Shown: piece after piece, positions 9,046 to 64,000 of the stretch
How positions within the stretch are numbered: position 1 is the stretch's first letter
Layout: the number at the start of each line of letters is the position of its first letter
From: Ruditapes philippinarum
Taxonomy: Eukaryota
Direction of reading: 5' to 3'
Length of the DNA stretch: 64,000 nt
Assembly (NCBI RefSeq): GCF_026571515.1
Contig: NW_026853829.1
Coordinates: forward strand, 248,001-312,000
Notes under the pieces: generated by a model
What the model saw: only the letters and a program-made list of their open reading frames with translations
Told to the model about the DNA's origin: nothing
Database searches by the model: none
Position numbers and translations under genes: made by a program

Positions 9046-10720
9046 AGATATATAGATTTTCAAATTAACAGATAATTAATTCTTAATTAATAAATAAGAA
9101 AAAAAAACCTTACATACTCATAGTCTTTATATAATTAAAATAACAATTTATATAATTATTATTGTATACTTATTTTTACTAAAAAGGGCTAAGACAGTTA
9201 TTGAATGTGCCATTATTTATAACAGGTCAATTTGAAAGTGAATATAACTGTGCTTATACATGTACAATATCTATGATAAGAAATGTTATGAAGGCTGATT
9301 TGTATTTTACATCAAGGACACCGGGCGAAAACATGAAAATGCAACAAACGAACCACTTTGTGGTAGATTTTATTTTCATGTTTTCATCTGGCGCCCGGTT
9401 ACTTTTTGTACTTTGTTGGTTTTATGTGGCACAAATCCACCACTATAAAATTTAGTGTACAAATTTATTCAAGGACTAGTAACAATTATCTACTATCTAA
9501 TGTAAAGTCTGTTGTCGGGTTGACTCAGGAGACCTGGAGGTTGAGACCGGTGTCCCTCCATTACAAATAGATAAGTCAGAAGCTGTCCTTTTCAAACTAT
9601 GCACATGTTAGAAAAAAATTAGAATAACTATTCAGAACATGATTTTTTGAGGCTTTATCAATTATATTGCTTGATCCGAGTTTCAGGACATTTTCAATCA
9701 ATACATGTATTATCATTTATAACTTTAAATGAAAGTCTCATCCCTTTAATAATAATGACATAACTGCAACTCTTTAAATTCAGAAATATTATAAGTCTCA
9801 TCATACCAATATACTAAGATATAAATGTATGCACATAACATTAATAATTCCAAGTTTCTATTAAATAAATATGAAATATATTGGGTATATAAAGCCAGTA
9901 AAAGTATATATATATATCAATATTCACTCATCAGGGCCTCTATGCTTTTGATGACCTTACAACTGGTAAATTTTATAAAACAAAAATTGTAAGTAATACC
10001 TAAGATAGACGGAAAAGAACAAATAATTTAGTAAACATGAGTTACTTCCCCTTGAAATAAAGAAAACATGAAACCCAAAAGAACACCCTAAACATCAAAA
10101 TTAAGAAATGTTGCAGGCTCATTTTAATTATGCCATGCAAATTAATGGTAAAGAATTCATAAAAAAGTAGATGGCCATGTGACAGCAGTAATTGCAGAAA
10201 ATCGGATAGCTGTCAACATCCGGATACTGGTACACTTTGTAAAAACAACCATTCTGATCAACAGATAAACGTAATATGGATAAAATCAATAGGATAATCG
10301 TTTACAACAGTCCATTACCTATCCTAATACTCATTTGCAGGTGAACTTTCTTCTTGTAGGAAAGTTTTAAAAATATATAAATGAATGAGCATCAATGTAG
10401 ACCACAACGATATTCGAAATCCGGGTTTTAGTATTGTCAATAAAACAAAGGGACAAGCTGTTAATCAGAGCCTGCAATTTCGTGAAAATTATATCACAAT
10501 GCACATGCTTTTTATATAAAGTTATTAAATACAAATATAACAACATATTTGTTTACTTGATTTTTACGAATCAAAATAAATATAATTAACACAACATGAA
10601 ATTAACTGCTAATAATAACAGCTCCTTCCATAGGCAAAAATAAAAAGCATTCCATATAAGACGACGCCGCTCACCGGCGTCGCCAATAAACTTCACGAAT
10701 CCCTCTTGTATATACATGTA

Positions 10721-13257: not shown

Positions 13258-13994
13258 GTTGATACCTATGTCAAAATTAATTTTAGACAGTTATTTCATA
13301 TATAAACCAGCACAAGTTATGATAGTGAAGTTATTGAACAATTTTTATCTACTATGTAAAATGATCTTAATTTAAGAATAGTCATAGTTTTTGATCTATT
13401 TCTATTTCAGATAAGAAGTGAATACATGTAGATTGTATCGTATGTTAATTTACAGAACAAAAGTACATATACATATATAAAGGGACACGATTAATGAAAG
13501 TCAGAAACTGTTTTGTGTAACGGCCCTGTATATTGTTGGATATTATAAAAGCTTAATATAACGTCGAAATAGAAGTGAATATTGAAAGGCTTTAGGCTCA
13601 AATGTTCCCTACCTATGCATTAGATTCAAAACGACACGTCTAAACACCAACAATAAGTTCAAATTCCATGGATGTGGAGCACCAGGTTGTCTTCATTTCG
13701 AAAATGACGAAATGACTTTGACTGGACGAACCATGTATTTTTTAAAATTTATTTCGTCTTCTGCTTATGTTTACATTAGATACATACATGAATATCAACG
13801 TAATGATATAGTAACAAAAGGCCATTATGGTCTTGGATCACCAACCTGAGAGAAGAAAAAATATGTATTGGCAGTATGTCGTCAATTGTCACGAAATCAA
13901 AGGCCTGAAGGGCCATAATGGCTTACGGGTTTGATATGACTATTAAGTTGAAGGAAACAAAGGCAGTCGGTGCGTGGCTTGGATAGTATACATT

Positions 13995-15423
13995 TACATG
14001 ACGCATGGCGATATATTTTAATCTGTCTGTCTGTGCGTCCCATCTTCTTTCGTGTCCGTTTTGTAACTTTGTGATACATTGAGGGATTTTGAAATAGCTT
14101 GGTATGAATATCTACCACATCAAGACGATGTGACGCGTTTACAAAATCACGTCCCTACCTCAAAGGTCAAGGTCACACTAACATTTTGAAGTTTCACATT
14201 ATCACAATTAAAGTTAATAGGTTCACATAATCGTGTTCGGACTGTAACCTTGCCATGCATCGAAATTTTTTTAACTAACTTGGTATAAATGTCTACATCA
14301 TGAAGTCGTTGTGTCGCGCCTAAAACACGTCTCTTCCAAAAATTCAAGGTCATACTAACTTTTTGAAGTTTCACGTTATCACAATAAGAGATTATAGGTA
14401 CAAACATTCGTGTCCGGACTGTCATGCATCGAAATATTTTAAAATAACTTAGCATAAATGTCTACCACATTGAGACGACATGTCGCGTGCAAAACCCATG
14501 TTCCTATCTCCAAGGTCGAGGTCACGCTTATAGTTTGAAGAAACTCATTCTCTCGAAAGAGTTTGATGATACACAGTCATGTCCGGACTGTAACTTCGTC
14601 ATGCATTGAATGGTTTTAAAATAGCTTGGCAAAAATGTTTTCCACATCAAGGCGATGTGTCGCGGCTAAGGCTCGTGTCCGTATATCCGTCCGTGCGTCC
14701 CCACTTACACAACAATCGTTTATTGACGGATTTTTAAATAGCTTGGTACAAGTGTCTACCACATCCAATTTGTCGCGGCTAAGGCCCATATCACTACCTA
14801 AAAGGTCAAGGTCACACTAAGAGGTTGAAAAGGTAATATTTGTTTCCAAACTGTAGCTTTTTCATGCATTGAAGGATTTTAAAATTACTTGGCACAAAAG
14901 TCAAACACATCATGGTGATGTGTTTCATTTAAAATTCATGTCAGTTAGTCAAAGGTCAAGGTCACACTTACATGTTAAAGGTTTTATATTCTCACGTATA
15001 TTTTAAAGGTACACACATTTGTGACTGGACTGTAACTTTTTTATGCATTGAAGAGTTTTAAATAACTTGTTTACCACATCAATATTACGTGTTATGGGTA
15101 AGGCCCAAGGTCCTACCTTCAAGGTCAAGGCCACTATAAAAGTTTGGAGGTTTTAATGCTCATAAGAAGAGTTTGAAGGTACACATTATTTTTCAAACTG
15201 TAGCATTGAAGGATTCTAAAATAACTTGGCATATATGTCTACCACATCAAGATGATGTGTCGCGTCCAAAAATCATGTCCCAAGGTGGTAAGTTTGCTAC
15301 AAATAGCTATTTATTTCACAAGAACATTATTAAACAATTAGTTACTTACATTCTGTTCTCTTCATAATACCTTTCTGTAATGCTTTTTGGGCAATTCGTC
15401 ACTTTTGCGTGACAGCTCTTTTT
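13995..15423 (-). mobile_element. Degenerate HINE-type element(s) with ~170-180-bp tandem core
   Basis: CTGT/CGTC microsatellite near 14024 and recurrent AAGGTCAAGGTCAC...TCCGGACTGTAAC...TCTACCACATCAAG units. Same family as 28229-28841 in the opposite orientation. Confidence 0.7.
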
Positions 15424-15590: not shown

Positions 15591-18071
15591 CACGGGGGGG
15601 GGGGAATCACGTGACTTTGTATAGTAATACCCACGAGAAAATGGCGACTGCTGAGCCCCGGTAAGTACCTTATTATGTTAAATTAAGGTGGCAAACGTTT
15701 CTTAAATCAAAACAAAACCTAGTATATCATATGCGCGTTAATTTTCTTCAAATGACAATACAAAGTGCATTATCCTACGTTTTGTGGTTTTTGAGAACAT
15801 TGTTTGAATTGTGTGAAAATTGCACATTCAGCGATAGTAATTCGCACGAAGCGATATAATTTGGTACCAAAATAAAAGAAAATAAGCTTACTTTCTGCAC
15901 TTAAGACACAAAATCAATCATTTTATTGACATCTGTTATCGTAGTCCATATAAAATATATTTTCGAAGGTCTGTAGCCTACAAATGTTCTTTGCAAGTGT
16001 ATAGTAAGTCAAACGAACAATTTCTGGATAGTAAGTCGCACGAAAACAAAATAGTAAGTTTCACGCACAGTTTCCATTAGCATACATATGCATTAAAAGA
16101 AAGTTAAAGTCCATATGTAAAGAGATAGAAAATACTTATTTCAATTATTCAAGATCAAATGTTTCACTTTTTGTCTATAGAACGAATGCTTAATTGGTTG
16201 TAATCATACTATATCAAATGAACTTTTGATGAGATTTGATATTACACGGCTCAGTGTTATTTTTCTGTTGCGATAGTAGTTCTTTGACCTCTGCAGTTTC
16301 AGGTGTGACTTGGTCCTCATTTTACTGTAATTAGAAAGAAGAAACAACAAAAAACAACAATGATACAGTGATACAAGTTATGATTAAGGCACATTGTGCC
16401 TCAGAAATCCATATTGTTTTGATTCTTTAGAAATGTCAAACATGTGTTTCATAATGTTTAAATAATGGATAAAACGCATGATAAAATTTTTATTACACCT
16501 GAAAAAGGTAGCGCTGATTATTCAGTGATGTGTCGTTAAGGTAGCAAAATGTAAACAAAGTAGTATTTTGACTTCCATACGAAATACTTATTCACTAAAG
16601 ATATACCATTTTCCAACAGAACCAAAGATGCAAAAGGTAGTTTGAGTATCTAGCAAATGAGTATGTTTTCGGAAACTGTAACAAGATACCAAAAAATAAA
16701 CAGGTTTTTTTTAAAAAATAAAAATGATAGCATTTAAGAGGCATAATTGACCTTTAAAGAAAAACGAATATTTGAAATTAAACGGTCAAAGATATTTACA
16801 CTTTTTAAAGTGAAGGCAAATGGAGTGAAAAATAATATTTACATAAAACAATCTTAGATGCTGGGTTTCAAATCACACCGTCAATGTCGGGACACCCGAG
16901 TTAAAGCACCGACGTTTTGTTAGCTAGTTTGATGAAATAATTCAAGGACTCTGGTCGGACTAGAATCCATAGCGGTGAGAAGCATGTGTATTAAAATCAG
17001 GGACATTAAACACTCGGCCATGGACGCCCTGAATATCTTATTTACTAACTCTATCACAAACAAAAAGTAAGAGTTTACGACGCAACACATTTGCACATGG
17101 TAAGAAAATAAGCGTATGGTTTAACAAAACTTCTTGGGTTTATTTATAAAATCTGCCAGTGTATAAAAGAATAAATTTAATAAAAACTTGGTATACCAGT
17201 TCTATGATGGCATTAAATATCAATGTGATATGGCGGAGTTCTTCTCCTTTGCGTTTTTGGTCAAAAATGCAGATACTGAAAAGCAAATGATGGTGTTGTA
17301 ATATTTCCTTCTGTACAGTTATTTCTTTATATAGCTAGTTCTAAAGATAACGGATGTGGGTTCAGTCAAACGTGAAAAAGGGCCAAGTGTAACGTACATT
17401 GTTGAGTACCAATGTCAATGTCTCATTTAGTTTTTTTTTTAAGTTAAGTGCCATGTTTTATGAAATAATATAAATTATTATTAAATACTCTCTCGATATT
17501 TTGTTTCTCTGTCACCGTAGACGGAACACACTTGCAAATTTGAAACCAAATAATTATAAAATAGTTTCGTCACATTTTAGTAAGCTATTGGAAACTGTGC
17601 GTGAAACTTACTATTTTGTTTTCGTGTAACTTACTATCCAGAAATTGTTCGTTTTACTTACTATACACTTGCAAAGAACATTTGTAGGCTACAGACCTTC
17701 GAACAAAATTTTATATGGAATTCTACAAGAACAGATGTCTATAAAATAATTGATTTTGTGTCTTAAATGCAAAAAGAATGCTTATTTTCCTTTATTTTGG
17801 TACCAAATTATATCGCTTCGTGCGAATTACTATCGCTGAATGTGCAATTTTCACACAATTCAAACAATGTTCCAAAAACCACAAAACGTAAGATAATGCA
17901 CTTTGTATTGTCATTTGAAGAAAATTAACGCGCATATGATATACCAGGTTTTGTTTTGATTTAAGAAACGTTTGTCACCTTAATTTAACATAATAAGGTA
18001 CTTACCGGGGCTCAGCAGTCGCCATTTTCTCGTGGGTATTACTATACAAAGTCACGTGATTCCCCCCCGTG
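15591..18071. mobile_element. Non-autonomous DNA transposon with ~490-bp TIRs, CAC...GTG ends and 5-bp TSD (Transib-like end signature)
   Basis: 15591-16081 is the reverse complement of 17584-18071. AATCA is duplicated at 15586-15590 and 18072-18076. No internal ORF. Confidence 0.88.
16946..17030 (-). repeat. tRNA-derived SINE head fragment (second copy ~25035-25110, + strand)
   Basis: Minus strand GGGCGTCCATGGCCGAGTGTTTAATGTC... carries an A box TGGCCGAGT and a decayed B box; it matches GGGACGTCCGTGGCCGAGTCATTAAGGTC at 25035. Confidence 0.65.
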
Positions 18072-18689: not shown

Positions 18690-20916
18690 AACAAGAGGGC
18701 CATGATGGCCCTAGATCGCTCACCTGACCCATCAAACTCATCCAAACAATTACCTAGACAAGCATTCTGACCAAGTCTCATGACAGGTGAGTCAAAAATG
18801 TGACCACTACAGTGTTAACAAGGATTAACCATATTTGAGCAGTGTGACCTAGTTTTTTACCCAGGTGACCCATATTCAAACTTGACCTAGAAATCATCAA
18901 AACGAACTTTCAGACCAATTTCCAGGATATTTGGATCAAAACAGTAGCAACTAGAGTGTTAACAAGATTTTTCTATTCTTTGCTCCGGTGACCTAGTTTC
19001 ACATGCGATTTCGAACTCATCCGAGCAATTACATAGACAAGCATCCTGACCAAGTTTGATGATAATTGAGTCGAAAATGTGACCACTAGAATTTTAACAA
19101 GGTTTTTCCATATTTGGGCGGTGTGCCCTAGTTTTCATCCAAGATGACCCATGTTCGAACTTGACTTAGAAATCATCAAAACCAACTTTCAGACCAATTT
19201 ACAGGATATTTGGATCAAAACAGTAGCCACTAGAGTGTTAACAATATTTTTCTATTTTTAGCTCCTGTGACCTAGTTTTTCATCCGAGATGACCAATGTT
19301 CGAACTCATTCAAGCTATCACCTAGACAAACATCCTGACCAAGTTTGATGATGATTGAGGCAAAAATGTGACCGCTGGAGTGTTAACAATGTTTTTCTAT
19401 TTTTAGCTCCGGTGACCTAGTTTTTCATCTGAAATGATCCATGTTCGAACTCATGCAAGCTATCACCTAGACAAGCATCCTGACCAAGTTTGATGATGAT
19501 TGAGGCAAAAATGTGACCGCTAGAGTGTTAACAAAGTTTTTCTATTTTTAGCTCCGGTGACCTACTTTTCATCCGAGATGACCCATGTTCGAACTCATCC
19601 GAGCTATCACCTAGACAAGCATCCTGACCAAGTTTGATGATAATTGAGGCAAAAATGTGACCACAAGAGTGTTAACAAGGTTTTTCTATTTTTAGCTCCG
19701 GTGACCTAGTTTTTCATCCAGGATTACGCATGTTCAAACTCATCCAAGCTATCACCTAGACAAGCATCTTGACCAAGTTTGATGATGATTGATGCAAAAA
19801 TGTGACCGCTAGAGTGTTAACAAGGTTTTTCTATTATTAGCTCCAGTGACCTACTTTTTCATCCGAGATGACCCATGTTCGAACTCATCCGAGCTATCAC
19901 CTAGACAAGCATCCTGACAAAGTTTGATGATGATTGATGCAAAAATGTGACCGCTAGAGTGTTAACAAGGTTTTTCTATTTTTAGCTCTTGTGACCTAGT
20001 TTTTCATCCGAGATGACCCATGTTCGAACTCATCCAAGCTATCACCTAGACAAACATCCTGACTAAGTTTGATGATGATTGAGGCAAAATTGTGACCTCT
20101 AGAGTGTTAACAAGGTTTTTCTATTTTTAGCTCTTGTGACCTACTTTTTCATCCGAGATGACCCATGTTCGAACTCATTCGAGCTATCAACTAGATAAGC
20201 ATCCTGACCAAGTTTGATGATGATTGAGGCAAAAATGTGACCGCTGGAATGTTAACAAGGTTTTTCTATTTTTAGCTCCAGTGACCTAGTTTTTCATCCG
20301 AGATGACCCATGTTCGAACTCATCCGAGCTATCACCTAGACAAGCTTCCTGACAAAGTTTGATGATGATTGATGCAATAATGTGACCGCTAGAGTGTTAA
20401 CAAGGTTTTTCTATTTTTAGCTCTTGTGACCTAGTTTTTCATCCGAGATGACCCATGTTCGAACTCATCCAAGCTATCACCTAGACAAACATCCTGACTA
20501 AGTTTGATGATGATTGAGGCAAAATTGTGACCTCTAGAGTGTTAACAAGGTTTTTCTATTTTTAGCTCTTGTGACCTACTTTTTCATCCGAGATGACCCA
20601 TGTTCGAACCCATCCGAGCTATCACCTAGACAAACATCCTGACCAAGTTTGATGATGATTGAGGCAAAAATGTGACCTCTAGAGTGTTAACAAGGGTTTT
20701 CTATTTTTAGCTCTTGTGACCTAGTTTTTCATCCGAGATGACCCATGTTCGAACTCATCCGAGCTATCAACTAGATAAGCATCCTGACCAAGTTTAATGA
20801 TGATTGAGGCAGAAATGCGACCGCTAGAGTGTTAACAACAAAATGTGAACGGACGACGGACGACGGACACTCATCGATCCTAAAAGCTCACCCTGAGCAT
20901 GCTCAGGTGAGCTAAA
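18690..20916 (+). mobile_element. HINE/pearl-like element with ~14 x 145-bp tandem core
   Basis: 5' AACAAGAGGGCCATGATGGCCCT hairpin + GCTCACCTGA. 3' GGACGAC microsatellite and hairpin AGCTCACCCTGAGCATGCTCAGGTGAGCT. GAACTCATCC anchors at 19591 and 19881 give 2 x 145 bp. Confidence 0.88.
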
Positions 20917-21568: not shown

Positions 21569-22680
21569 AATAGAGAAAACCAGAATCCCTAAAGAATGTT
21601 CAACACAACTAAATTGAAAATGTTGCAGGCTCGGTTTGATTGAGCCTGTTCATGGACGGTACTGGAAAGTGCAAGTTACCGTCCACGCCCCCTACCACCG
21701 GATTAAGCAGAATTCAACATTTAACACGAAAATGGTGAAATTTTGAATTAAGAAACGTCCGCAGATGTTTTCATCTCTTACTTCATGATGTATTTTGCCT
21801 TTTTAGGCATTTTTGTTGCCAGAATTTGTTTGTTATATCTTCAAATTTGTAACAACTATAAAATAGATAAATACAGAATCCCTAAAGAAAGCCCAACACG
21901 GCAAAGTTGAAAATGTTGCAGGCTCGGTTTGATTGAGCCTGTTCATGGACGGTACTGGAAAGTGCAAACTACCGTCCACGCCCCCTAGCACCGGCTTAAG
22001 CAGAATTCAACATTTAAACATGTAATAGTAAAATTTAGAATTTAGAAACATCCGCAGATGTGTTCATACGGCGGTTATCATGGAACCTTCAATGTGACAC
22101 TTCCGTGCCATACCATGAAAAGCGGCGTATGGTCCCCAAGTAATAAAAAGCGTGTGCCCTAAACGAGTAAACAATGGGCGGAACTAAATAAAATGGAATT
22201 TTGAAAGGGGATCAGAGGTTATGAAGCCTGCGTATCACAGATAAAATAGATAAATACAGAATCCCTAAAGAAAGCCCAACACGGCAAAATTGAAAATGTT
22301 GCAGGCTCGGTTTGATTGAGCCTGTTCATGGGCGGTACTGGAAAGTGCAAGTTACCGTCCACGCCCCCTAGCACCGGCTTAAGCAGAATTCAACATTTAA
22401 CATGAACTGGTAAAATTGAGAATTTTGAAACATCCGCAGATGTGTTCATATGGCGGTTATCATGGAACCTTCAATGTGACACGTTAGTGCCATTCCATGA
22501 AAAGCGGCATATGGTCCCCAAGTAAAAAAATGCGTGTGCCCTAAACGAGAAAACAATGGGCGGAACTAAATAAAATGGAATTTTGAAAGGGGATCTGAGG
22601 TTATGAAGCCTGCGTATCACAGATACGACGTCAAAAGACAAATTTAAAAAGCAGGCAACATATCCTAAGGGTGATTCAAT
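21569..22680 (-). repeat. Family A structured repeat: three head-to-tail 5'-truncated copies (21569-21770, 21862-22243, 22245-22680)
   Basis: Each copy begins on + with AATAGA(T/G)AAA..CAGAATCCCTAAAGAA (the common 3' end of the minus-strand unit) and extends for a different length. Confidence 0.85.
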
Positions 22681-23361
22681 AAGACATCAACAATAATTTT
22701 ATTTTGATTTATTGTTTTGGTCTTGTAAACTCTTGTATGTGCGCATGATCAAATTCAATTAGACCAATCTTATTTTATTTTATGCTTTTGAGTGGATTAC
22801 TGATTTATCCGTAAAATAATATCTGATAATTTCACAGTGAAAATTATCATAATATAATCTCATACTTTTCAATGACGAGACTATTTTTAAAGATTTTCCC
22901 CATGTGGTACCTCATATTTATTTTTTGCTGACAATTCCGACATTGTCAGTGCTGTGTAGAGAAAAGCAAAGCTGAAATTGATACATAACTTAAATTTCAA
23001 AAGAAGTAAAAAACAAAACTTACTTCAATTCATTCAAATTTCCTATCACCAAATAATTATCATCTTTTTGTTTCATTTTTACGGTATGAAAATACACTTC
23101 CTTCTACATGCGCATTCTGGTGGCATTTCGCTGCATCATTTATGAACATCAATAAAAAGAACTAGAATTCTACAGCTTACCTAAGTCAAACGAATATCAA
23201 TATTATATCGATGTTTTTCTGTTTCACGGTAGTTTTTGACTTGTAGTAATTTTGGAGTCTGATACCTGCGTTGTACACGCGATCTGATTGGATGTCCAAT
23301 ACATACAGGATACTAGAATAAATTTAATACACCAGCTAAGCAGACGCATATGTATACACAA

Positions 23362-24328
23362 AATAGATAAATACAGAGTCCCTAAAGAAAGCTCAACACG
23401 GCAAAATTGAAAATGTTGCAGGCTCGGTTTGATTGAGCCTGTTCATGGACGGTACTGGAAAGTGCAAGTTACCGTCCACGCCCCCTAGCACCGGCTTAAG
23501 CAGAATTAAACATTTAAACGTGAAATAGTAAAATTTTGAATTTAGAAACATCCGCAGATGTGTTCATACGGCGGTTATCATGGAACCTTCAATGTGACAC
23601 GTCCGTGCCATTCCATGAAAAGCGGCGTATGGTCCCCAAGTAATAAAAAGCGTGTGCCCTAAACGAGAAAACAATGGGCGGAACTAAATAAAATGGAATT
23701 TTGAAAGGGGATCAGAGGTTACAAGGTTTGTTTGTGCCGTGTGGAGGCTGTAAAAAGTCGCCCCGTACATTCAATCAGAGATGTTATATTTCCGATCCTT
23801 AAAGATCGTTCAGCACGACATTATTGTTGTGCTTGTGGTATTTTTAGTTTTAACTTTTCGGCATTTTCTAGTTTGGTGGTTCCAATATTCTTACTTGAAT
23901 AATGTTCAATCACCCTTAGGATATGTTGCCTGCTTTTTAACTTTGTCTTTTGACATCTTATCTGATATGCAGGCTTCATAACCTTTCAAAATTCCATTTT
24001 ATTTAGTTCCGCCCATTGTTTTCTCGTTTAGGGCACACGCTTTCTATTACATGGGGACCATACGCCGCTTTTCATGGAATGGCACGGAAGTGTCACGTTG
24101 AAGGTTCCATGATAACCGCCGTATGAACACATCTGCGGATGTTTCTAAATTCAAAATTTTACCATCTCATGTTTAAATGTTGAATTCTGCTTAAGCCGGT
24201 GCTAGGGGGCGTGGACGGTAGTTTGCACTTTACAGTACCGTCCATGAACAGGCTCAATCAAACCGAGCCTGCAACATTTTCAATTATGTTGTGTTGGACT
24301 TTCTTTAGGGATTCTTATTTTCTCTATT
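23362..24328. repeat. Family A inverted pair: antisense copy 23362-23720 fused to longest sense copy 23721-24328
   Basis: The outer ends are reverse complements (AATAGATAAA... / ...TTTCTCTATT) and 23980-24328 mirrors 23362-23720. Confidence 0.88.
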
Positions 24329-24474
24329 CTACAGTGGCTTCAACAAAAAAATGCGCTTTTCTTCTGCAAATGTGAATAAAATATAGCACTAATTTTTCTC
24401 TCCAACAAAAGGGGTCCTTCGTGTACTCTACTTTCAGTCGACAAAATGTCATACATTTTCTAAAATCCTGTTAA

Positions 24475-24955
24475 AATATGATAAACAAGATCAACAAGGA
24501 AAGGCGGCGTTCAATGAACGCAACCCCCACATGACCCAGCAACATTGGAAATTATTTTCTATAATGATGAGCCACAACTTTAAGAAAAATTGGGTCATGT
24601 TTACACCGCTAATCAAGTAAAGGAAAAATTATCTGATTGTATACTAGACATATGATTGTTGTGCAAGTCAAAACTCTCAAAAGCTTAACTAGGAATAAAA
24701 CTTTAAGTGTATCAGTCCATCTGCGCGTGTTTCTAAATATTTCATGTAAAATGTTGAATTTTGCTTAAGCTAGTGATAGGGGGCGTCGACTTTAGCTTAC
24801 ACTGCGTTCATTGAATGCCGCCTTTCCTTGTCGATCTTGTTTATCATATTTTACACTTCCGAGTACCGTTTATGAACAGGCTCAATCAAACCAAACCTGC
24901 GACATTTTAAATTTTGCCGTTTTGGGCGTTCTTTAGGGATTCTTTATTGCTCGAT
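24475..24955. repeat. Family C copies (24475-24543 minus; 24804-24850 plus) and a decayed family A copy (24715-24955) interrupted by family C
   Basis: Motif GTTGCGTTCATTGAACGCCGCCTTTCCTTGTTGATCTTGTTTATCATATT; TTACACT is duplicated at 24797-24803 and 24851-24857. Confidence 0.8.
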
Positions 24956-25938
24956 ATTTGTTTTTTTTAAATTTATCTGATAAAATGACGGGTTCATTAT
25001 CCATGGAGGTTAGACCTCATCCAATTAAAATTGTGGGACGTCCGTGGCCGAGTCATTAAGGTCGTTAACTTTTAACCGCTTGACACTGACTGCTGTCGTT
25101 TGGATTTCTTCAAATTCCTTCGAGCTAAAAAATGTGAACATTTTTTATCAATAAGATGGGGATGTATTATATTTCACTTAAATAAACACTGAATTTTTTA
25201 AACATAAACATGGTGATTCAGTATTTTTTTATCAGATAGGGTCATAAAATTTCGTCAAGTTTACACTTGCCGAATTTGTATAAAGTAGATATTACTAGGG
25301 GTGACCTGACCCTGATTTGATTCATCGATCTCCATTAAAACAAACAATAAAGAAAAAAGGTAAATTAAAAATAAAGAAACACACGCACACACACAAATTG
25401 AAGGGTCACGTCCAAATAATGGACGGCAACCCATTCTGTCCGTGGTTTCGTTGATCAATGACGGTTGCGTTCGAGATGGTATCCGGATGTACTTTTCTGT
25501 TAAAGGGTTGTTTCAGTTTCTACAAAACAGGTACGCTGCAACATGAAAGAAATCAATTTGGTGTCGCCTAAAACATCATTGTAATTTCTTAGCACCATAC
25601 ATGTTTTTTTTAATAAAGGCTCAATATTAAATTCATGTCTGAGAAAAAAAATGTTTGACTGAGAAACAGTGCAGACTCGGTCTAGTTGAGCCTATTTTTG
25701 AGAAACAATGAATGATCAATGTGTATTAATCCCCTAATCCCCAGCTGAAGTTTTACCCAATCCTCTGCATTATAACAATAGAATCAATGATCCCAAATAA
25801 TCAATATTAAAATATATTTAAAAAAACAGTGAAATAAAGAACACGACAACTGCTTGTTGATTATACTTATATAGAAACTTTCGCAAAGTATGTGCCAGTT
25901 GTTCAAGGGTACCACTTAGATGTACACACTTATATATA

Positions 25939-28228: not shown

Positions 28229-28841
28229 AAACAAGCATTGCTTAGTAAGTTAACGATGTCCAAGATAAATTGATGACTGATGACATCTCCTTAGTGTTCA
28301 ACTAGCAGGGCAATGATTTTTTTATGTGTTTTAGTGTCGGGATATTGGCCATCATCGTTTTATGCCAAGTAATTCTAAATGCTTCGATGCATGACATAGT
28401 TACAGCCCGGACACGATTGTGTGTACTATTGTGATAATGTGAAACTTCAAAATGTTAGTGTGACCTTGACCTTTGAGGTAGGGACGTAATTCTAAGACGC
28501 GACACATTGTCTTGGTTCGGTAGACATTTATGCCTAATTATTTTAAAATCATTTAATGCATGACAAAGTAACAGTCCGGAAACGAATGTGTGTACCTATT
28601 TACTCTAATTGCAATAACGTAAAACTTCATAATGACAGTGTGACCTTGACCTTTGAGGAAGGGACGTGGTTCTTGGACGCGACACATCGTCTTGATGTGC
28701 TAGACATTTGTGCCAAGTTATTTTAAAATCCCTCAATGTATGACAAAGTTACAGTCCGGACACGATGAAGTGGGGACGCACAGGCGGACAGACGAACGGT
28801 GCAATTTTAATATGCAATATGCCTCCCTTTGGAGGCATAAA
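28229..28841 (+). mobile_element. HINE-type element with ~180-bp tandem units
   Basis: AAACAAG start, GTGACCTTGACCTTTGAGG at 28460 and 28640, GGAC/AGAC tract and terminal hairpin ATGCCTCCCTTTGGAGGCAT. Confidence 0.75.
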
Positions 28842-31296: not shown

Positions 31297-32163
31297 ACAA
31301 GAGCGATCAGTATTCACATGTGTCGCCTCATGATGGCCAATTTCATGTTGGGACAAATTTTGTGACAGACGGACAGACAGACGGACAGTGCACAACTAAA
31401 CTTGGTACTGATAATTCCTGTAAAGTTTGGATAAAATTGCACCTGTAGTTTATGAGGAGTAGTCCGGACAAGCTTTTGCGTATCTGGCAACACAAAGAAA
31501 AAAACACCTTTTTATCAAAGGGCCATAACTCGGCCAAAAATCATTCAACCGGAAAACCCGTGCAATATGCGCAAGGACTTGAGCTACAGATCAATCCTGT
31601 AAAGTTACATTGAAATTGCATTAGTGGTATAAGAGAAGTAGTCCGGACAAACTTTAAAATTAAAAATTATTAAAGGGCCATAACTCTGACAAAAATCATT
31701 GAACCGGAAAATGCTGACAATATGCACAACTAGACCTGGTACTGATCATTCCTGTAAAGTTTGGATGAAATTGCACCAGTAGTTTATGAGCAGTAGTCCC
31801 GACAAGCTTTTGTGTATCTGGCAACACACAGAAAAAAACACCTTTTTGTCAAAGGGCCATAACTCGGCCAAAAATCATTCAACCGGAAAACCCATGCAAT
31901 ATGCACAAGGACTTGAGCTACAGATCAATCCTGTAAAGTTTCATTGAAATTGCATTAGTGGTATAAGAGAAGTAGTCCGGACAAACTTTAAAATTAAATT
32001 TAATTAAAGGGCCATAACTCTGACAAAAATCATTGAACCGGAAAATGCTGACAATATGCACAACTAGACTTGGTACTGATAATTCCTGTAAAGTTTGGAT
32101 GAAATTGCACCAGTAGTTTATGAGCAGTAGTCCGGACAAGTTTTGTGACGGACGGACGGACAG

Positions 32164-32195
<32 letters not shown>

Positions 32196-32202
32196 GAAGT
32201 GA
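31297..32202 (+). mobile_element. HINE-type element with alternating 155/179-bp core units
   Basis: Subterminal TGTGTCGCCT vs AGGCGACACA, GACG/GACA microsatellite at 32147-32194, and AAAGGGCCATAACTC anchors at 31517, 31672, 31851 and 32006. Confidence 0.85.
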
Positions 32203-33175
32203 TCCCTATATGTCGCCACTACTCCGTAGAGGCGACACAAAAATGAAATAAACAGAGGTCATTCATTTCTCCACAATTGTATAACTAAAATGCTATGGCT
32301 CTTCAGAATGTCGCCCGGGATCTAACCGGTAGGGAAGTTTGGTTTGCTGGGTCGTGTGGGAGTTGCGTTCATTGAACGCCGTCGTTCCTTGTTGATCTTG
32401 TTTATCATATTGTATTGCTTGCAATACTTTGTTATATGGGCATATATTTAAATAAAACAAAAAATACCTGTTTGCTTACCAAAATTTATTTTATGTCTAT
32501 TTGAATAACATTTAATGCTAAATAACATGAAATATTGAATATTGTATTTGATATACTAATATCTAGATATCAAAACTTCCACTATATATTACTAAAATTT
32601 GAAGCAAATAAGGTAAGAAATCAAGTTACAGAAGCTCGCAAAATCTCTGTATTAAATTGTAAAAAGTAATACTTAGCAAATCTATATTTGCACGCAAATA
32701 TAACAGAAATTTGTTGGATAACAGTGTTTTTAACGATCAAAACAATGGATTAGAGACTGTTAGGTACTTTCTGCCTTTTTAAAGTAGGCTGATTGTGAAA
32801 TAACTACCCATACATGTGGAATATAAAAAATAGCAGTTTGAATTCCATACAAAATACTATATCTGTACTAATACATATGTTATTTAGCCAATAAAACTAT
32901 AAAGAACACCAAAACTAACAAGCTTTTGAGAAATAAACATAAAAAGTATTTCTGGGACATAACGCCATCTTAGTACAGTAACGGTCTTACTAAAAAAGAT
33001 AATAGAGTTAACCCGCTACTGTTCCGAGGTGATGATTTGGTCTTTAAACATTTTAATCGATTAAATGAATACGCTTGTTTTATATTTATTCAAACAGCTA
33101 CACCCCGTGTAAGATGACAAATATTACATTTTTGTTTTATTTTTAATTCCCATTTAAATCTACATCATATTTTAT

Positions 33176-34469
33176 TTAGACAGTAATGACACTAGTGCCT
33201 AGTCCTTGCTGAAGAAGAAATCCGCTGAAAGTTGAATAAATATAAGGATCACCAAATAACTCGCTTTTGACTATAAGATTTTGGACAGCCACAACATCCC
33301 CTTGTTGAATCTGAATGACTAATGTTTGACTTCCTTGATCATACCTACCATCCGTACTACGTGCATAAGCAGATGCCTTGATCAGTCCATTTACTACCAA
33401 TTCACCAAACACTTCCTGATTTCGATCAACAAAGATTGAAGTGTGAAAAACATAGAGACCTGATACCGGTGCAGTAAAAACGCCTTCATGAGGATTATAG
33501 CCATTTCCAATATTTGTTTCTACGTGGTCAAATGGTATGTTCTGGTGAGCTCCTAAATTGTCCACACTCTTACTAAGACCAGCGGTAAACGCAACAGTTA
33601 ATTCATTATCCTTCGTCTGCTGAATTCTGTTGACTGAAAACATAAATAAATGTAGATTTCTTATCATATTGAAACAAAAACCGTATTTCTTAAGTTGAGT
33701 TCGCAGTCTTTCGGTCAATTGGAGATTAAACATTTACATTTTCAAAATTGCCGATTTGTGCGTTCTATAGGGTTGTGCTAGCGGGAGTGGAGGGTAACTT
33801 GCACATTCCTGTACAGTCTATGTCTAGGCTCAATGAAACCGAGCCTGCAACATTATCAATTTTGCCATTTTGGACTTTCTTTAGGAAGTCCTTTCCTCTC
33901 TATTTTTTAATTCTGCTCATAATGATAAAAATGTTGATCATAATTAACTGAACCAGCAGGTATAATACTATGTTTATTATTTAGATAACATTTGTATAAT
34001 TAGGATAACAAAAGTCAAAGTCTATTCATACACCCAAAAGCATGACAAAAGGTGTCATGTCTCTTCAAATAATTAAATCGAATATCATACCTGGTGTTTC
34101 TTCAGTCATCTGTTTTGTTTTATCAAGGACACTTTTCTGTGACATTTCCATATGTTTTACACGTCGAATCAGTTGTAGGATAAAACGATCTTGATGATTT
34201 CTTTTCTTGCGCAAGGCAGCTATCTCATCCTTTTGATTCAGCAGTTGTTCATTGAGGAGACCTATTTGTTTTTTGTGATATCGCTGAAATTCGTTAAGCA
34301 TTTGCATTTGTTGTTTACTGAAATCCTCAAGGTCATCAACGCGTTTAAGAAGTTCCCGAACGTTAAAATCATCCGGAGTTAGTTTTGTGTTGACCGATGA
34401 AAGGTTAATAAAGTCTGCCACCAATGAAGCAAAATTCAAGATTAAACAAAAGTACTGTAAAGGAGACAT
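33176..34469 (-). CDS. C1q-domain-containing protein 3, exons 34469-34091 and 33633-33176, 278 aa
   Basis: N-terminal hydrophobic segment, coiled coil homologous to the paralogs (LLKRVDDLE...QKDE...RFILQLIRR), phase-1 GT-AG intron and full gC1q; spliced length 837 nt. Confidence 0.92.
33768..33904 (+). repeat. Decayed family A 3' fragment inside the C1qDC-3 intron
   Basis: GTGCTAGCGGGAGTGG...AGGCTCAATGAAACCGAGCCTGCAAC...CTCTCTATT. Confidence 0.75.
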
Positions 34470-35470: not shown

Positions 35471-37428
35471 AAACTAAATCAAATTAATTAAAATTACATC
35501 TTCTCGGGAAAAACATTTCCCATCCTTATCGACTTATTGATGTACATTGATTTTATCCAGATCTTTAGTAAAACGCATTTTAGTAGATATGATTAACATC
35601 AAGTTTCCTGAATATTTACATCAGTTACATTAATCATGGTCCTATGGTAAAAACGTTTGACTCCAATTGAGTCATAGACATACTTATGTATTTTATACCA
35701 TTAGCAATGGATCCTGTTAGAACAATGTAAGCCAACATGGCTCTTTTTGTTGAAAGTTGCCATCTATTTATAAGGTTTGACAAGTATGTACATACAAGTT
35801 GTCTGATATGGCGGGTCTATGATATTGGTAGCTCATAAAATCTTTATTGTTTATCCATTGACATGTTGAATTACTTAAATGGTTTCTCCTAAAATCACTC
35901 TTGTGTCCTGTACCATTTCATTGTCTTCTGTGTGACCTGCTGGTATGGCTGGATTATGTCAGGGGGTTGCGTTATTTAACCTTTGCTTTTTTGATCATTG
36001 TTTTCATTTCTTTCTTTTTAAGAACTGCCCATTATCAGTTGAAGATGTATAGACGAAAATTGAAGGTTAGTCAGACAACAGTAATTTAAAAATATAACCT
36101 GGTCAGATTGCACAGGTGGTAAAGTCTAATCATTTTGGTTCGGACGGTTTAAGGGTTATAAGGCTTGCATTATTTCCAAACTTGTCATTTTGGGCTATGC
36201 TTTAGGGATTCTAATTTTCTCTTATTGGAGAGGTCATCAGACCTGTCCACAATGTTCAGACTGATTGCTGGCGGCATCCATTTTTGCGTATCTGATTGTA
36301 GTGAATGAATCTCATTTAAAGCGTAAAATCATTAGGAGCGGTCTACAAAAATGGTTTTGCGCATGCTTCGTTTCCAAATACGACTTAACTTGAACGAAAA
36401 ATTAACATCGAAGTGAACAAATTGGTACATAGAAAACTCGGAAAATGTCATTTACGTTACTTAGCGCTACGTCGATGTTTCGTTCCGTTTTAATGTTTTA
36501 AACCGTAAAAGTCGATTACCGTTACGGTATTGTTTTCTGAATGGCGTTTTAATAGTTCATGTTCCGATAAATAGTGACAGTGAACATTATAGCAACAATA
36601 ACACCATGCTCTAATATATGACCGAGTAAACTGTGGACCGAAAGTTTACTGCTCCTAAATCTTTTGAACCGGTATGACTAAATAACGCAACAGTGATCTT
36701 TTGGCGCAAATGGCACAAATTTTACTAAAGTTTGATTTTCGTCAAATATTGTGGTTGGAGGCATGCAGCTTTATATACTGTTTATTCTAATCAAATGCTA
36801 TAAACATTTTTTTTATGTAAATCCTGGTCTTAAAATTGTTTGATTAACATACTTTATGCTCGTTTTGGAAAATGTAGAGGAAATGTTTCCATATACTTAC
36901 CAAAACATAAACCGAAAATTTGCTTATTGAATTTTACAAGAAACTTTTTGATAATACTTTTAATATATTTAATTTATTTTAAATCTAGTTCCCTTTGTAG
37001 AAAAACTATCCCTTATGCGCCAAGAAAAAGCCAATTTCTCTGGCATATTATCTTTCAAAACAGTTTAAAACAAACTTTCATTATGATACTATATTCAATA
37101 TATGTACTGTGCCTCTCTTAGTTCACGGTATTTAACGCTTTGAAATTGGAAAGAAAACAACAAATGAAACTTATGGTACAAAATTGTCATAATCTATAAC
37201 ATAAAGGTATTTTCTGCAGTATGGCGCAAGGAAACAAGAATATATTCAGTCAAAGTCAATTCTAATGCATATGTCGGCCATTTTGAAAACAGTATGTCAT
37301 CATTTAAATCGCAGCAATGGTGTTAATTTCAGTTTTTTCATGTTTCAGTTAAAATTTCTACATTTGTTCTGCTTGATTTTAAATATTAAAATTATCCTTA
37401 CTTTGTAACTCAAAATTTATATTTTTAT

Positions 37429-52529: not shown

Positions 52530-54331
52530 CTGTCTGAGTTGCAATAACTTTGTTTAACAAATGTTAACATACTACTGCCAAATTAGTAGTTATATTATTA
52601 CTTGATTGATTTTGGCTGAATTTGTATTAAAGATATACTATGCTCAAATTTGATATTAGAAAATATTGATAATTAGTACACAGTAAATATAAAATAAACA
52701 TGTATTGACTTCACACAAAATAGATATGTTATGTTTAAAATTCTACATACTATAGGTGGTAACATTATGAATATACATGTATAGTGTCATTACAAAAGCC
52801 GTCAGTTTTTTTTAAAGAAAAGACCAACTTTACTTGACCTGTTAAAGGGAATGCAGCTTCCTATACATAGTTTATTTAATATTTTATCCAAATTCAACAT
52901 ATTCAGTAAGAATATCATAGATTTCAATAAATTTCTGTGATAAAAACATTTTACCCAAGAATGAGCATAGAGTATCTTCAATTAAATCTTATCTATATCA
53001 CATAGATGTTAAAATATTGTATGTAAAAATATATTACCTGATATGACAGAAATGAACCAAGCTGAACTTGACCAAGATCTGTTGTAACTAATGGCCTCTT
53101 TGATGAGAGAAGGTATTCAAGAGGTGTGCCTTTGGCCCCTTTTAACTGCTCTATATCATAGCTGGTAACCTCTGGAAGCCTGTAAATTTATGTGAAAGAT
53201 TTCATAAATTAAAACATTCTTTACAAATTTTATACATGTAAAATGTACAAGTATCTGACATTGTTGTTAAAATGTATATAAGTAAAACGCCTATATGGAT
53301 TTTGTTATAGTTATATAATATAAATAAAGAATGAAATTTTAAAAACATATGTGTAGTTACTTTTGTACTTTGTTTAAAATCTTACTTGTACTGAGTGTCA
53401 ACTTGGCATAAAACTGGTTTTCTCTTCCTTGTCTCACAAGCTTTGGCCACCACAACATGGTTAAGTGGGACAGGCTCAATCTTCTCTCCTCTTGGAACAT
53501 GCCATTGCTGGGGCACACTTGTACAACTCAACTGGTCAGGTACATTACTGATGTTGTGTAGTTTCAGCCCTTGAAGGGTTTTCACTAGACCAATAATGTG
53601 GGAACAGTGGCCTGTTAATCTGAAATATACAAGACTGCACATTATTATTGTATCAAACAGTGATTCAACAATGATGGTGATAAATCATGATGATGATGAT
53701 GATGATCATTTTTGTTATCATTAGATCTGTTTTGATTAAGTTGACAGAAAAAATACACCATGACTCTTCTGTCTATGATATCTTTTTTCTTTACTGAAGA
53801 GAATTAATTTTAAAAAAAAATCCGACATAGTTATACATGTATAATAAATAGATCTACATAATGGTGTATAGTATATACATTTTTTTATATTTTTTATTTA
53901 TTTATTTTATTTTATTATTTTATTTTTTTTGGAAAGTGGGAGGGGTGCAATTCATTTTTTTTATTCTAAAATAGAGAAATACAGAATCCCCAAAGAAAGC
54001 CTACTTAAGTTGTTGACAATTTTACGTACTTGATTACTTACCCAACCTTACAAGAGCAGTACGACTCTGTTATAGTATCTTTAAGAATCTCAATATGTAG
54101 AGTGTGCGGCTTTTCGTTTTTCCTCATTGATCTCCAACACCGAGCAACAACCTTTACCTTGGGTTTATCGTCAATATGAACCTTAATTTGATGGACATAG
54201 CCTTGAAGGTAGTAATTTAAACCTCTTTTTATAATCCTTTCCATAAGACTTCTGTGATTAGGTAGAAAACTAATAGATATATTATCGGGCACATCTTCTA
54301 GCGAGTCGGTTGTTGTTGATACGGCCGCCAT
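50644..54331 (-). CDS. SWIM zinc finger + YqaJ/lambda-exonuclease-like protein; exons 54331-54042, 53619-53386, 53179-53038, 51438-50644; 486 aa, open
   Basis: CSCKVG|LTGHCSH (SWIM), SCTSVPQQWHVPR, GSFLSYQ, WHQARQNRLTAS, GATPDG, IEIKCPY and YYAQVQGQL. Exon phases are compatible and the 1461 nt have no internal stop. Confidence 0.92.
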
Positions 54332-54406
54332 TTTGGATGCTGGCTTGTGAGGCATAGCAACAATCACTAGGGATTGCGCAATAGGCGGAAATAATCGGAA
54401 CGGTCC

Positions 54407-54830
54407 ATTGATGCAAGCACTATTAAGTGTGGGTATGGAGTACCGCTCAAGCCGGTGCTAGAGGGCGTGAGGGATGTTGCACATTTTTATTTTCCCTCAT
54501 CAAACCGAATCTGCAACTCATTTGTAATTGTGTTGTAATTAATGCTTTCGAGGGATCACTTTGTTTTCAGATTTTTATACTTCACAACAGCAGGTGTCAA
54601 GTGATGTGTGGCAGCTGTCAAACGTTGCCCGTACTTCACTTCAGTGTTGTTATATTTTTCTGGTCCTTCGGGATCATTGATGCCAGCGAGAATTGAGAAC
54701 CCGGTGCTAGGGTGCGTGAAGGATGTTGCACATTTTCATTATCCCTAATGTACAGACTCAAGCAAACCCGATTCTGCAATTCTCTTGTAATTTTGGTGTG
54801 ATAACTGTTTCCGAGGGATAACTTTTATAT
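54407..54830 (+). repeat. Family B structured repeat (about 1.5-2 tandem units; left piece at 48626-48651)
   Basis: Reverse complement of the 60245-60692 array; split by the ISL2EU insertion. Confidence 0.85.
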
Positions 54831-60244: not shown

Positions 60245-60692
60245 AATAAAAAAATCTGGAAACAAAGTGATCCCTCGGAAGCATTAATCACAACAAAATT
60301 ACATAAGAATTGCAGACTCGGTTTGATTGAGTCTGTACATGAGGGATAATGAATGAGTGCAACATCCTTAACGCCCCCTAGCACCGGCTTGAGCGGTACT
60401 CAATTCTCAACACTTAATAGCGCTGGCATCAATGATCCCGAAGGACCAGAAAAATATAACAACACTGAAGTGAAGTACGGGGCAACTTTTTACAGCTGCC
60501 ATACAGCACTTGACACCTGCTGTTGTGAAGTATAAAAATCTGGAAACAAAGTGATCCCTCGGAAGCATTAATCACAACAAAATTACATAAGAATTGCAGA
60601 CTCGGTTTGATTGAGTCTGTCCATGAGGGATAATGAAGGAGTGCAGCAGCCCTCACGCCCCCTAGCACCGGCTTGAGCGGTACTCAATTCTC
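60245..60692 (-). repeat. Family B tandem array, 284-bp period, ~1.6 units
   Basis: AGAATTGCAGACTCGG at 60306 and 60590; the units are nearly identical. Confidence 0.9.
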
Positions 60693-61685
60693 AAACCATC
60701 CATAGTTCTGTATTAGAGTAAATTCCAATGTAATTAATATCGGATATGGTATATCTGAGATGATATAAATTTGAAAATTTAACAACTATTTCAGGAAAGA
60801 CATTATTTATGTTGTAGACATAAAGTAGGAAATGTTTCGTGGTGTACATGATAACAGACTTATACAAAATAAATGAGTAAATCAAGTAGTTTAGGTAAAC
60901 TTTAACTGAAAAGAATTATTTAAATTTCAATATGAGTTATAACAAAACAAATTCATCTTACTATCATTACCATTTACAGAAGCATTTACAACGTAAAAAC
61001 AAATTTACTGCTATGGAAATGACCACTAAAACGAAGGTACATTTGACATTGTTGATATCCTTTATCTTTCTAACTTGTTGCGTTCATTGAACGCCGCCTT
61101 TCCTTGTTGATCTTGTTTATCATATTTTGTGTAAATCATTACAAAAAAATGATTTTTATCAAAGTTATCTAATTAACAATATTCAATTTTTTTAAGGTAT
61201 AGGAGTAACAGTTTTTTCGCGGGTATGTTTGAAAGACAAATCATCACCCTAAACGTCATACGGTGACTTTCAAGCTCTACTGGTCGAGGTCATTTGAGAA
61301 TAATATTCCTTACAGTCTGAAAGTTGGTACCAAAAGGCTAATGTAATATTTCATAATAATGATGTCAATAGTTTTGCATTTTCAATTCCACGCTTGATAT
61401 TGTATCACGAGTTGTTATGTTATTAATTCTAAAATATATAGAACTGCCAAGTCATTTTTACAAAGAATATTTTATATATTGACAATCATATATAACATAG
61501 CTATCAAAATAAATGTGATAATATCGGCATTTCACCATTTAAGTTTAATTTAACAATTTGGAAAACACCGAATTTGCCATAACAATGCCGATAATTTCTT
61601 AATAAATAGAACAGGATTATGTTTTAAACTGAAGAAAAAAATTAAGTTTTGAAAGTGAAACATTTACATACAAATACTGTAAACA

Positions 61686-62866
61686 AATAGAGAAAAACAA
61701 AAGCCCTAAAGAAAGCACAACACGGCAAAATGTAAAATGTTGCAGGCTCGGTTTGATAGAGCCTGTTCATGGACGGTACTGGCAAGTGCAAGCTAGCGTC
61801 CACGCCCCCTAGCAAGCAGAATTCAACATTTAAACACAGAAATGGTGAAATTTTGAATTTAGAAACATCCGCAGATGTTTCTAACTAAATAAAATGGAAT
61901 TTTGAAAGAGGACCTGAGGTTATGAAGCCTGCATATCACAGATAAGTCGTCAAAAGACAAATTTAAAAAGCAGGCAACATTTCCTAATGGTGATAATACA
62001 GTATTCAAGTAGGAATATTGGAACCAAACAATTACTAGAAATATAAAGTATTCACAATTCTGTGTTTTGAGAGTAAAATATAAAGGAACGCTTATAATAT
62101 AGATAAATACAGAATCCCTAAAGAAAGCCCAACACGGCAAAATTGAAAATGTTGAAGGCTCGGTTTGATTGAGCCTGTTCATGGACGGTACTGGACAAGA
62201 ATAAAGATAAGGTCAAAAATTAAACTAACGATTCATCCAGTATGCAATCGACGATCTGTCTAGCCGATAGCGCGACACAATCTTACAATCCCTAACGTCC
62301 TCTAGCCGTACCCTTTTTAAAAACGCTATTTCTTTTTTTCAATGATCTCTGATCTCAGAAACGTAAATTTATTCCATTTTGGAGTACATGTGACGTCACG
62401 CAAACGTCGTTCGACAGCACATTCGTAACTGCCGCGGCTATTATCTACAATAACCTCGGAAACAATACGGATCGCAAGTAGTTATACCACGTGGTTTCAG
62501 ATGTTAACAAAAACTGAGTTTGCAATGTAAAACGAATGTATATATTTGACATCAAAAGGTAAAATAAGGTAGGTTTCGGGCTTGTACCGCTCAAGCCGGT
62601 GCTTGGGGACGTGAGGGATGTTGCACGTATTCATTATCCCTCATGTACAGACTCAATCAAATAGAGAGAAATAAGAATGCCTAAAGAAAGCCCAACACGG
62701 CAAAATTGAAAATGATGCAGGCTCGGTTTGATTGAGCCTGTTCATGGACGGTACTGTAAAGTGCAAGTTACCGTCCACGCACCCTAGCACCGGCTTAAGC
62801 AGAATTCAACATTTAACACGAAACTTTTGAATTTAGAATCACCCACAGATGTGTTCATACGGCGGT
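61686..62866. repeat. Cluster of family A copies (61686-62042, 62097-62195, 62660-62866; minus) and a family B fragment (62583-62660; plus)
   Basis: Same AATAGA.AAA...CCTAAAGAAAGC start and GCAGGCTCGGTTTGATTGAGCCTG core as the 21.5-24.3 kb cluster. Confidence 0.85.
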
Positions 62867-64000
62867 TGTGTATACATGTAGTGACGTCGGACATGTCCGC
62901 AATTTTTAAATCCCCTTCTGACTCAATGCAAATACAAGCGCTAGTAAAACAAGTATATTTATTCTAAATAATGTATTTCAATCATCTAAACAGAATGGAT
63001 AGATAGAAGGATGTTTGTTTTATTACGTAAGTAGTGATTTTTTATGTATACTTACCGCATCGATTAAATATCGATAAACAAACACAGGCATTTCCGGGTT
63101 TTATCATGGGCGCGACCATCTTGAAAATCATGTGATAGGTGCTTTCTTTAAATGGGTATAACGTGACACTAATTTGGCCAATCGTGGAACTTTAGTACCG
63201 TGTGCAAAGGAGAAAACTCCGAAGAAACATCTGAGTGAGTAAAAGTTTGTTCACAAGGAAAGGAGGCGATTCGTCTTTGAAAATTGTAAAAATTACATCT
63301 CCACAATATAGCATAAATATTACGCAAGCTGCGAAAGAGAGCCAAAAGTTTGTTTTTCCAGGAAAGGAGAGCGATTTCGTCTTTTGAAAATTAGTAAAAA
63401 ATTACAATGTCCACAATATAGCATAATATATTTACGAAAGCTTGCGAAAGTCAGAGCAGTCTAAACAGTCCCTAAACTACATGTAAATGGTTTTAAACTG
63501 CCCTTAAAACGAAGGGCACGCCCGGGCAAGCTTTTGAAAGTGGGTCATGTCAAACCGGAAGCCATCCATTGATTGTCCCGTAATGTATTTTCGCGATGTT
63601 ATAAAAATGCCAGGAATCGTTATTGGTATCTCTATTTGGCAATAGATATCACTGTATGTGTGTTGTTTTCTTATTTTTAGTATTTGATAGTTCATGTAGA
63701 TCTATGATTACTGTAGATGTCCATCTTTTTTAGGCGTCTTAAGACTAAGTCTTAGACTTTTATTGAATGTTGTTGCAGTTAAGTCATACGGCATGCAATG
63801 AGTGACATTCCGAGCCAAGATCAGTTGAACACCCAACAAGATTTGTTTGATAGTGAGCAGGATTTGTTTGACAGCCAGCAACCTGAACAGGACTTGTTTG
63901 ACAGCCAACAGCTTGAAGAGTCGTTTGACAGCCAACACTCTCTGTTTGACACTGACAGCTCGCCGAACAGAACATTTACTGATCCGGTAATTATAAATTA

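Follow-up and report, generated by a model that had tools for sequence, protein, structure and literature searches.

The window, a 64,000-nucleotide stretch of Ruditapes philippinarum DNA, was AT-rich animal DNA (GC 0.28-0.40) and contained C1q-domain genes, HINE-type repeats, a LINE-type reverse transcriptase (RT), a DDE/YqaJ transposon, and two families of short repeats, here called A and B (Table 1). Three C1q-domain genes in tandem, with a coiled-coil-like exon upstream, were located at 5962-7120, 12174-13290, and 33176-34478, and a weak ArfGap match at 40506-40766 on the minus strand was probably an exon. A remnant of the LINE-type RT (RVT_1), which we take to be CR1/L2-like, extended over 37568-39156. 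Elements of ordinary HINE type, carrying core arrays (145-180 bp) and microsatellites (4-8 nt), occupied 2226-4448, 18690-20916, 14044-15281, 28420-28840, and 31350-32240. The transposon-like block at 48250-55003 carried THAP (weak), YqaJ, and DDE_Tnp_4 frames, with same-orientation 20-bp tandem arrays on both flanks and a family B tandem at its right end; positions 48630-48654 matched the 5' arm of B at 23/25 letters. An element at 15598-18068 with inverted arms of about 490 bp (93-98%) and a G-run start was unrelated to family A. Nine copies of a 50-70-bp repeat were also present (24473-24524, 24803-24852, 32362, 40215, 45874, 46685, 59238, 61077, and 5908), one of which sat inside the A copy at 24718-24955.

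Table 1. Features of families A and B in the window (positions counted from the first letter of the window)
Feature	Position	Strand	Remark
Family A, decayed stub, 13th copy	10056..10129	-	
Family A, 5'-truncated	21569..21774	-	BLAST
Family A, 5'-truncated, downstream unit of direct tandem	21862..22243	-	
Family A, 5'-truncated, upstream unit of direct tandem	22245..22679	-	
Family A, 5'-truncated, left arm of inverted fusion	23362..23721	-	
Family A, nearly full unit, right arm of inverted fusion	23728..24328	+	Natural 5' start incomplete, about 15-18 nt missing
Naiad-like 5' motif of family A	23731..23770	+	32/40 identical to Naiad_Scon 5' end, ungapped, by eye
5' arm of family A long-range stem	23794..23826	+	30 pairs, 5 G.U
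Conserved structured core of family A	24175..24279	+	Closing helix 24175-24182/24272-24279; hairpins 24211-24245, 24249-24271
3' arm of family A long-range stem	24281..24313	+	
Pyrimidine-rich fixed 3' terminus of family A, ends CTATT	24312..24328	+	Resembles last 16 nt of Naiad_Scon
Family A, old copy with 54-nt insert	24718..24955	+	
Old fragment of core, B-like	25670..25715	-	BLAST
Family A, old 5'-truncated copy	33775..33904	+	BLAST
Family A stub	36163..36226	+	
Family A stub, about 35 nt	53970..54001	-	
Family B, 5'-truncated, directly upstream of full unit	54406..54574	+	
Family B, full unit, 3' end decayed	54575..54825	+	
Family B, full 284-nt unit	60252..60535	-	
Family B, 5'-truncated, directly upstream of full unit (pseudo-LTR layout)	60536..60694	-	
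Family A, 5'-truncated, internal deletion	61686..62041	-	
Family A stub	62098..62193	-	BLAST
Family B fragment, interrupted by family A copy at 62661	62584..62661	+	
Family A, 5'-truncated, 3' end abuts cut family B copy	62661..62867	-	

The long copy of family A served as the query of a window-wide BLAST search, and the strand carrying the fixed end at 3' was taken as sense. All 12 copies and stubs to which the initial annotation had assigned a common 3' end were recovered, together with a decayed thirteenth at 10056-10129. Its description of a fixed 3' end with ragged 5' ends held for all 13 copies, which stopped between query positions 604 and 614. The starts of the 12 partial copies were spread over query positions 144, 184, 234, 261, 393, 402, 409, 478, 512, 535, 546, and 578, and all of them kept the same end (p = 5e-4 if either end is equally likely). 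The tandem stacking that had been proposed stood in part: the copies at 21862 and 22245 abutted directly, whereas the one at 21569 sat about 85 nt off. Copies of the two families were clustered, with seven A copies in 21569-24955 and three in 61686-62867. Decayed ends were seen at 24955, 36226, and 10056, an internal deletion of about 120 nt in the copy at 61686, and a 54-nt insert of another repeat in the copy at 24955. The fixed end carried a T-run and no poly(A) or microsatellite tail. No flank repeats (TSD) longer than 4 nt were found at the 13 family A insertions, the best being 2-4 nt in 13/13, like the random flank-pair null.

Two contig sets (X2 and X13) and two raw-read runs (X22 and X24) were mapped to window positions 23700-24400; RNA runs with 0.2-0.36 of the query words were left out of this read analysis. 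Run X22 was labelled RNA-Seq, and its loose ends carried GATCGATC at GATC sites; because of these junctions it is likely a Hi-C DNA library, and it was treated as DNA, with depth biased toward GATC sites. About one in 100 reads of this run touched the repeat. Sharp depth borders appeared at 23724-31 and at 24328 in 4/4 read sets, and the depth near the 3' side was 4.4, 5.7, 1.8, and 11.7 times higher than that near the 5' side, so that the 3' bias of the copies was repeated in all four. Joints from the 3' end to the 5' start made up five rows among the joints listed (18 contigs in X2, 17 in X13, 2313 reads in X22, and 4 in X24) and connected the family A 3' end to the 5' start across some 17-20 additional letters, which supported a tandem form of family A in 4/4 read sets. 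The hard 5' border and the head-to-tail joints together showed that family A is closed, with a unit length of about 620 nt and a defined 5' end, which the initial annotation had not foreseen. Among the joint and loose-end rows listed, no joint or depth led into a longer element or a coding extension. The unit held no ORF, and its frames of 55 aa or more gave no Pfam match. The 5' part of the long copy was also considered as the end of an ORF, which was rejected since the depth stopped there and A and B had no common frame.

The segment 23362-24328 was confirmed as a head-to-head fusion with both 3' ends facing outward. A 360-nt copy on the minus strand (23362-23721) was joined to a nearly full unit on the plus strand (about 23728-24328) through a spacer of at most 6 nt, and the arms were 94% complementary. 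A nested insertion was discarded as its source because neither arm's missing part was found beyond the other arm, and a TIR transposon was discarded because the spacer is element sequence and no TSD was present. The arms differed at 21 sites within the element and by a 10-nt indel. At 12 of the 21 sites both letters occurred in other copies, several of them as frequent read variants, which indicates two different templates; CpG decay can mimic such shared letters. The fusion would fit two RNAs having been primed at a single break, one from each side, and it may alternatively have arisen by a later deletion between two nearby inverted copies. A second head-to-head fusion was found in the metagenome loci L002/L003, in a more distant relative of family A.

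Family B had a unit of 284 nt and shared its 5' region, core, and end layout with family A, the interiors differing by about 330 nt. At both loci with a full B unit (54575 and 60252), a truncated unit was followed by a full one (the pseudo-LTR form) with the same junction. Four informative sites of the B tandems grouped the units by locus and one did not, so one event per tandem was weakly favoured. At 62584-62867, the 3' end of an A copy abutted a B copy cut in the loop of B's last hairpin. Relatives in five host-like metagenome contigs were 72-87% identical to A, with the same terminal letters in 4/5, and no RT-like frame was found in the inspected frames of L001-L003. A decayed frame with CxxC motifs lay upstream of the family copy at 800-1130 of L001 and presumably resembles a Crypton-type zinc-finger region. 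Pattern scans for the family gave 0 and 2 chance matches in viral contigs, and two such scans of prokaryote genomes gave 0 matches each.

In both families, a segment located about 84 nt downstream of the 5' start could pair with a segment 15-50 nt from the 3' end in a long-range stem (30 pairs with 5 G.U in A, 25 pairs with 6 G.U in B), and the letters of the stem differed between A and B. The duplex energy was -39.1 kcal/mol for the sense strand versus -22.0 for the other strand in A, and -33.2 versus -13.7 kcal/mol in B. The B unit folded as RNA with z -6.0 on the sense strand versus -1.0 on the other strand, and with z -1.3 when DNA energies were used; across the natural junction, the same arms closed a rod (z -5.1 versus -0.8). 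This stem between the 5' and 3' arms is predicted to hold the RNA ends together. The core had a closing helix plus two or three hairpins, and RNAalifold recovered 3/4 of its helices. Among 12 sequences, 93% of the core cells were paired, compared with 33-41% when slid, and 10 of the 32 core pairs changed on both sides, a count that overstates independence because the structure was derived from the same sequences and only about three lineages are represented. The core of A showed no strand preference, and the middle of A showed weak covariation among just two sequence types. No Rfam family reached its gathering score in the window, where matches at E 5-10 were at chance level, and no hammerhead, twister, pistol, or SECIS pattern, searched for as consensus cores, was found on the sense strand of A or B.

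The ends of 11 bivalve Naiad consensi (File S5, PMC8557442) were compared with A by eye. One of the 11, Naiad_Scon from the razor clam Sinonovacula constricta, began like the 5' start of A. The ungapped match by eye was 32/40 when only the window letters 23731-23770 were used, and 48/58 once two majority letters and an 18-nt stretch taken from read joints were included. The chance expectation over the whole supplement was 3e-3 to 7e-2 for 32/40 and 9e-10 to 9e-8 for 48/58, figures that do not count that both matches lie at the very 5' end. Two 9-mers common to A and Naiad_Scon each occurred once in the 584,131 characters of the supplement, in the first line of Naiad_Scon. At the 3' end, 15 of the last 16 nt matched by eye with one gap, in a match that is short and T-rich. 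A stem of 13 pairs (2 G.U) was also present in Naiad_Scon, with its 5' arm at the same offset of +84 as in A; its 3' arm stopped 20 nt short of the end, versus 17 nt in A. Naiad_Scon agreed with A in the first 58 nt or so and the last 16 nt or so, and A, B, and Naiad_Scon all had a terminal stem at the same offsets. In the same supplement, 11/13 matches of one 9-mer fell no more than about 200 nt from the 5' end of a Naiad, in bivalves, hemichordates, and a fish, with a C-run and GAG after them; A, B, and Naiad_Scon carried a variant of the 9-mer. From its distribution in these sequences, the 9-mer is a putative conserved 5' motif of Naiads, of which the available portion of the PMC8557442 text makes no mention.

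Several observations counted against a Naiad origin or set A and B apart from the published Naiads. A and B are 620 or 284 nt long, compared with 4.2 kb in Naiad_Scon, and have no ORF and no SECIS. Their interior words had no exact match in the published Naiad, Chlamys, or Hydra consensi, where line breaks can hide matches, their core was by eye unlike the 3' UTRs of Naiad_Scon and the other published clam Naiads, and core words in the full texts of papers gave nothing beyond chance. A motif of twister appearance was visible in Naiad_Scon and had no counterpart in A or B, which makes the A/B core a different structure at a comparable location. The 30-40-bp tail, which like a variable TSD is common in PLEs but not universal, was not seen behind the family A 3' end, where the run-on was at most about 4 nt. 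No (TA)n targets were found at the family A insertions, and the whole long A copy folded without strand preference (z -4.6 versus -7.7, 20 shuffles). No site at which many RNA molecules start or stop and no discrete transcript were seen in the four read sets.

From the anatomy, the closed unit, the one-strand pairing, and the shared ends, we consider it likely that A (about 620 nt) and B (284 nt) are non-autonomous Penelope-like elements (PLEs) that depend on a Naiad and are copied, likely through RNA, in trans. The initial annotation had proposed mobilisation in trans by a PLE-type enzyme, which was supported and narrowed to the Naiad clade because both ends of A matched those of Naiad_Scon by eye; this autonomous PLE is a consensus from a clam species other than the host. 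Its further statement that the enzyme is not in the window agreed with the 219 stop-to-stop frames of at least 55 aa, in which no PLE RT, GIY-YIG, or helicase family was matched and the sole RT match was at 37568-38497. Naiads are described as 5'-truncated, arranged in partial tandems with inverted upstream copies, and free of a hammerhead (PMC8557442), all of which A shared, including an inverted 5'-truncated copy adjoining the 5' end at 23362-24328 and in L002/L003. The tandems, the fusion, and the 5' truncation that had been put forward as a PLE hallmark were found. Helitron2 can show the same end asymmetry (PMC3627910), so the anatomy alone was not decisive.

A Naiad RT/GIY-YIG enzyme supplied in trans would copy the RNA of A and B. 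It would nick the DNA, prime at the U-rich 3' end in every case, and usually fall off early, which would leave ragged 5' ends. On reaching the 5' start, the enzyme would run on into another 3' end to give the tandems. The inverted fusion would result from two RNAs that were primed from the two sides of one break and became connected through their truncated ends. The stem between the two arms, with the terminal motifs, is predicted to be what the enzyme recognises. How PLEs build tandem and inverted insertions is stated as an open matter in PMC8557442. In a bolder, rather doubtful proposal, A and B are minimal Naiad substrates that would reveal how PLEs without a hammerhead form pseudo-LTRs. 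A panhandle conserved between A, B, and Naiad_Scon would clamp the RNA 3' end by the 5' start and let the telomerase-related RT pass from the 5' end onto the 3' end as though the template were circular, without requiring a tandem transcript. The covarying multi-way junction, located 50-150 nt from the 3' end, would be a novel RNA that cleaves itself or binds the RT, at the place where other PLEs have a hammerhead or twister.

With the same enzyme at work, A and B may, instead of being a separate RNA with borrowed Naiad ends, be left-over ends of an undescribed autonomous Naiad in the host, as internal deletion derivatives whose interior is the 3' UTR of that element. This would explain why both ends are Naiad-like and why A and B have common ends and core with an interior difference of about 330 nt, and non-autonomous Chlamys likewise resemble their autonomous partners at the 3' end (PMC8557442). 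The rows listed for joints and depth did not lead into a longer element, and the 3' UTRs of published clam Naiads bore no likeness to the core by eye; such an origin is possible, as the smaller part of the Naiad explanation. A Helentron was first suspected because Helitron2 copies can lose 5' sequence and still have intact 3' ends (PMC3627910). A non-autonomous Helentron/Helitron2 (HINE) would be copied by rolling circle from the 3' end, with one-ended termination producing ragged 5' ends and concatemers. The T-run at the fixed end, the lack of a TSD, and the precise head-to-tail joints of A are HINE-like, fungal Helitron2 end in ATTTT (PMC5148889), and B had an 8-nt subterminal inverted match as in a HINE (p about 0.02). 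However, the HINE prediction that was set before the read mapping failed, the longest inverted match between the start of A and its 3' subterminal motif being 3-4 nt, whereas the two HINE controls of the window (2226-4448 and 18690-20916) had subterminal matches of 9 and 10 nt and kept both ends. In addition, A had no microsatellite or core array, its ends matched a Naiad, and B folded as RNA, not as DNA, which makes a rolling-circle origin very unlikely. As far as they are described in the available parts of PMC4067079, PMC7492417, PMC3627910, and PMC5148889, HINE/DINE-1 and Helitron2 elements resemble A in the T-run end, the lack of a TSD, the joined ends, and possible 5' truncation, and differ from it in having subterminal inverted repeats, a 3' palindrome, and a microsatellite.

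The fixed 3' end with 5' truncation and the LINE-type RT at 37568-38497 would also suit a SINE-like passenger of an ordinary LINE (CR1/L2, RTE) whose copies cluster by chance. Against this, A had no poly(A) or microsatellite tail and no TSD, the window-wide BLAST gave no match between A and the stretch behind the RT, and the ends of A were Naiad-like. To our knowledge, neither natural 3'-to-5' joints nor head-to-head fusions characterise SINEs. The search for a tRNA/5S/7SL head gave no Rfam match, and a relaxed ARAGORN run produced an uninformative 207 calls across the window. We regard a SINE-like passenger as highly improbable. The size, the tandem units, and the high self-pairing of A and B are what a retrozyme, a self-cleaving tandem element with circular RNA, would display, and retrozymes are present in mussels (PMC7229834) and linked to PLE ends (bioRxiv 10.64898/2026.07.22.740005). 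This explanation is nonetheless quite unlikely, since no hammerhead or other searched-for pattern and no Rfam family at gathering score was found, and since the depth per million letters read was 0.38 in the RNA run X24 versus 15 in X22, a comparison in which the library type may exclude circular RNA.

Non-autonomous PLEs are already known, namely MRC1 (PMC8557442) and the non-LTR retrozymes (PMC7229834; bioRxiv 10.64898/2026.07.22.740005). According to the available portion of PMC8557442, the MRC1-type Chlamys of Chlamydomonas resemble A and B in being non-coding, in their pseudo-LTRs and head-to-tail insertions, and in the likeness of one end to the autonomous partner. They belong to an algal clade for which 3'-end likeness is reported, whereas A was alike at both ends, with the longer match at the 5' end; terminal pairing, predicted in A and B, is not mentioned there for non-autonomous Chlamys. 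Non-LTR retrozymes are, like A and B, short, tandem, self-paired, PLE-linked, and found in bivalves; in the portions of PMC7229834 and bioRxiv 10.64898/2026.07.22.740005 used here their defining features are plentiful circular RNA and a hammerhead of type I. Neither was seen in A or B, although the library type may exclude circular RNA. Unlike retrozymes, most A copies were truncated singles. No description of a short Naiad partner or of its terminal pairing was found in the literature searched, and the repeat may stand unclassified in Repbase/Dfam.

Assignment to the Naiads would classify a high-copy mollusc repeat of the "unknown" class. Naiads have no hammerhead, the motif presumed to process the RNA. 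The 284-nt B keeps little beyond Naiad-like ends and a structured core, which points to the signals needed in cis, and it could serve directly as the template when a Naiad RT is assayed in vitro or in cells, the Naiad RT being the closest mobile kin of telomerase.
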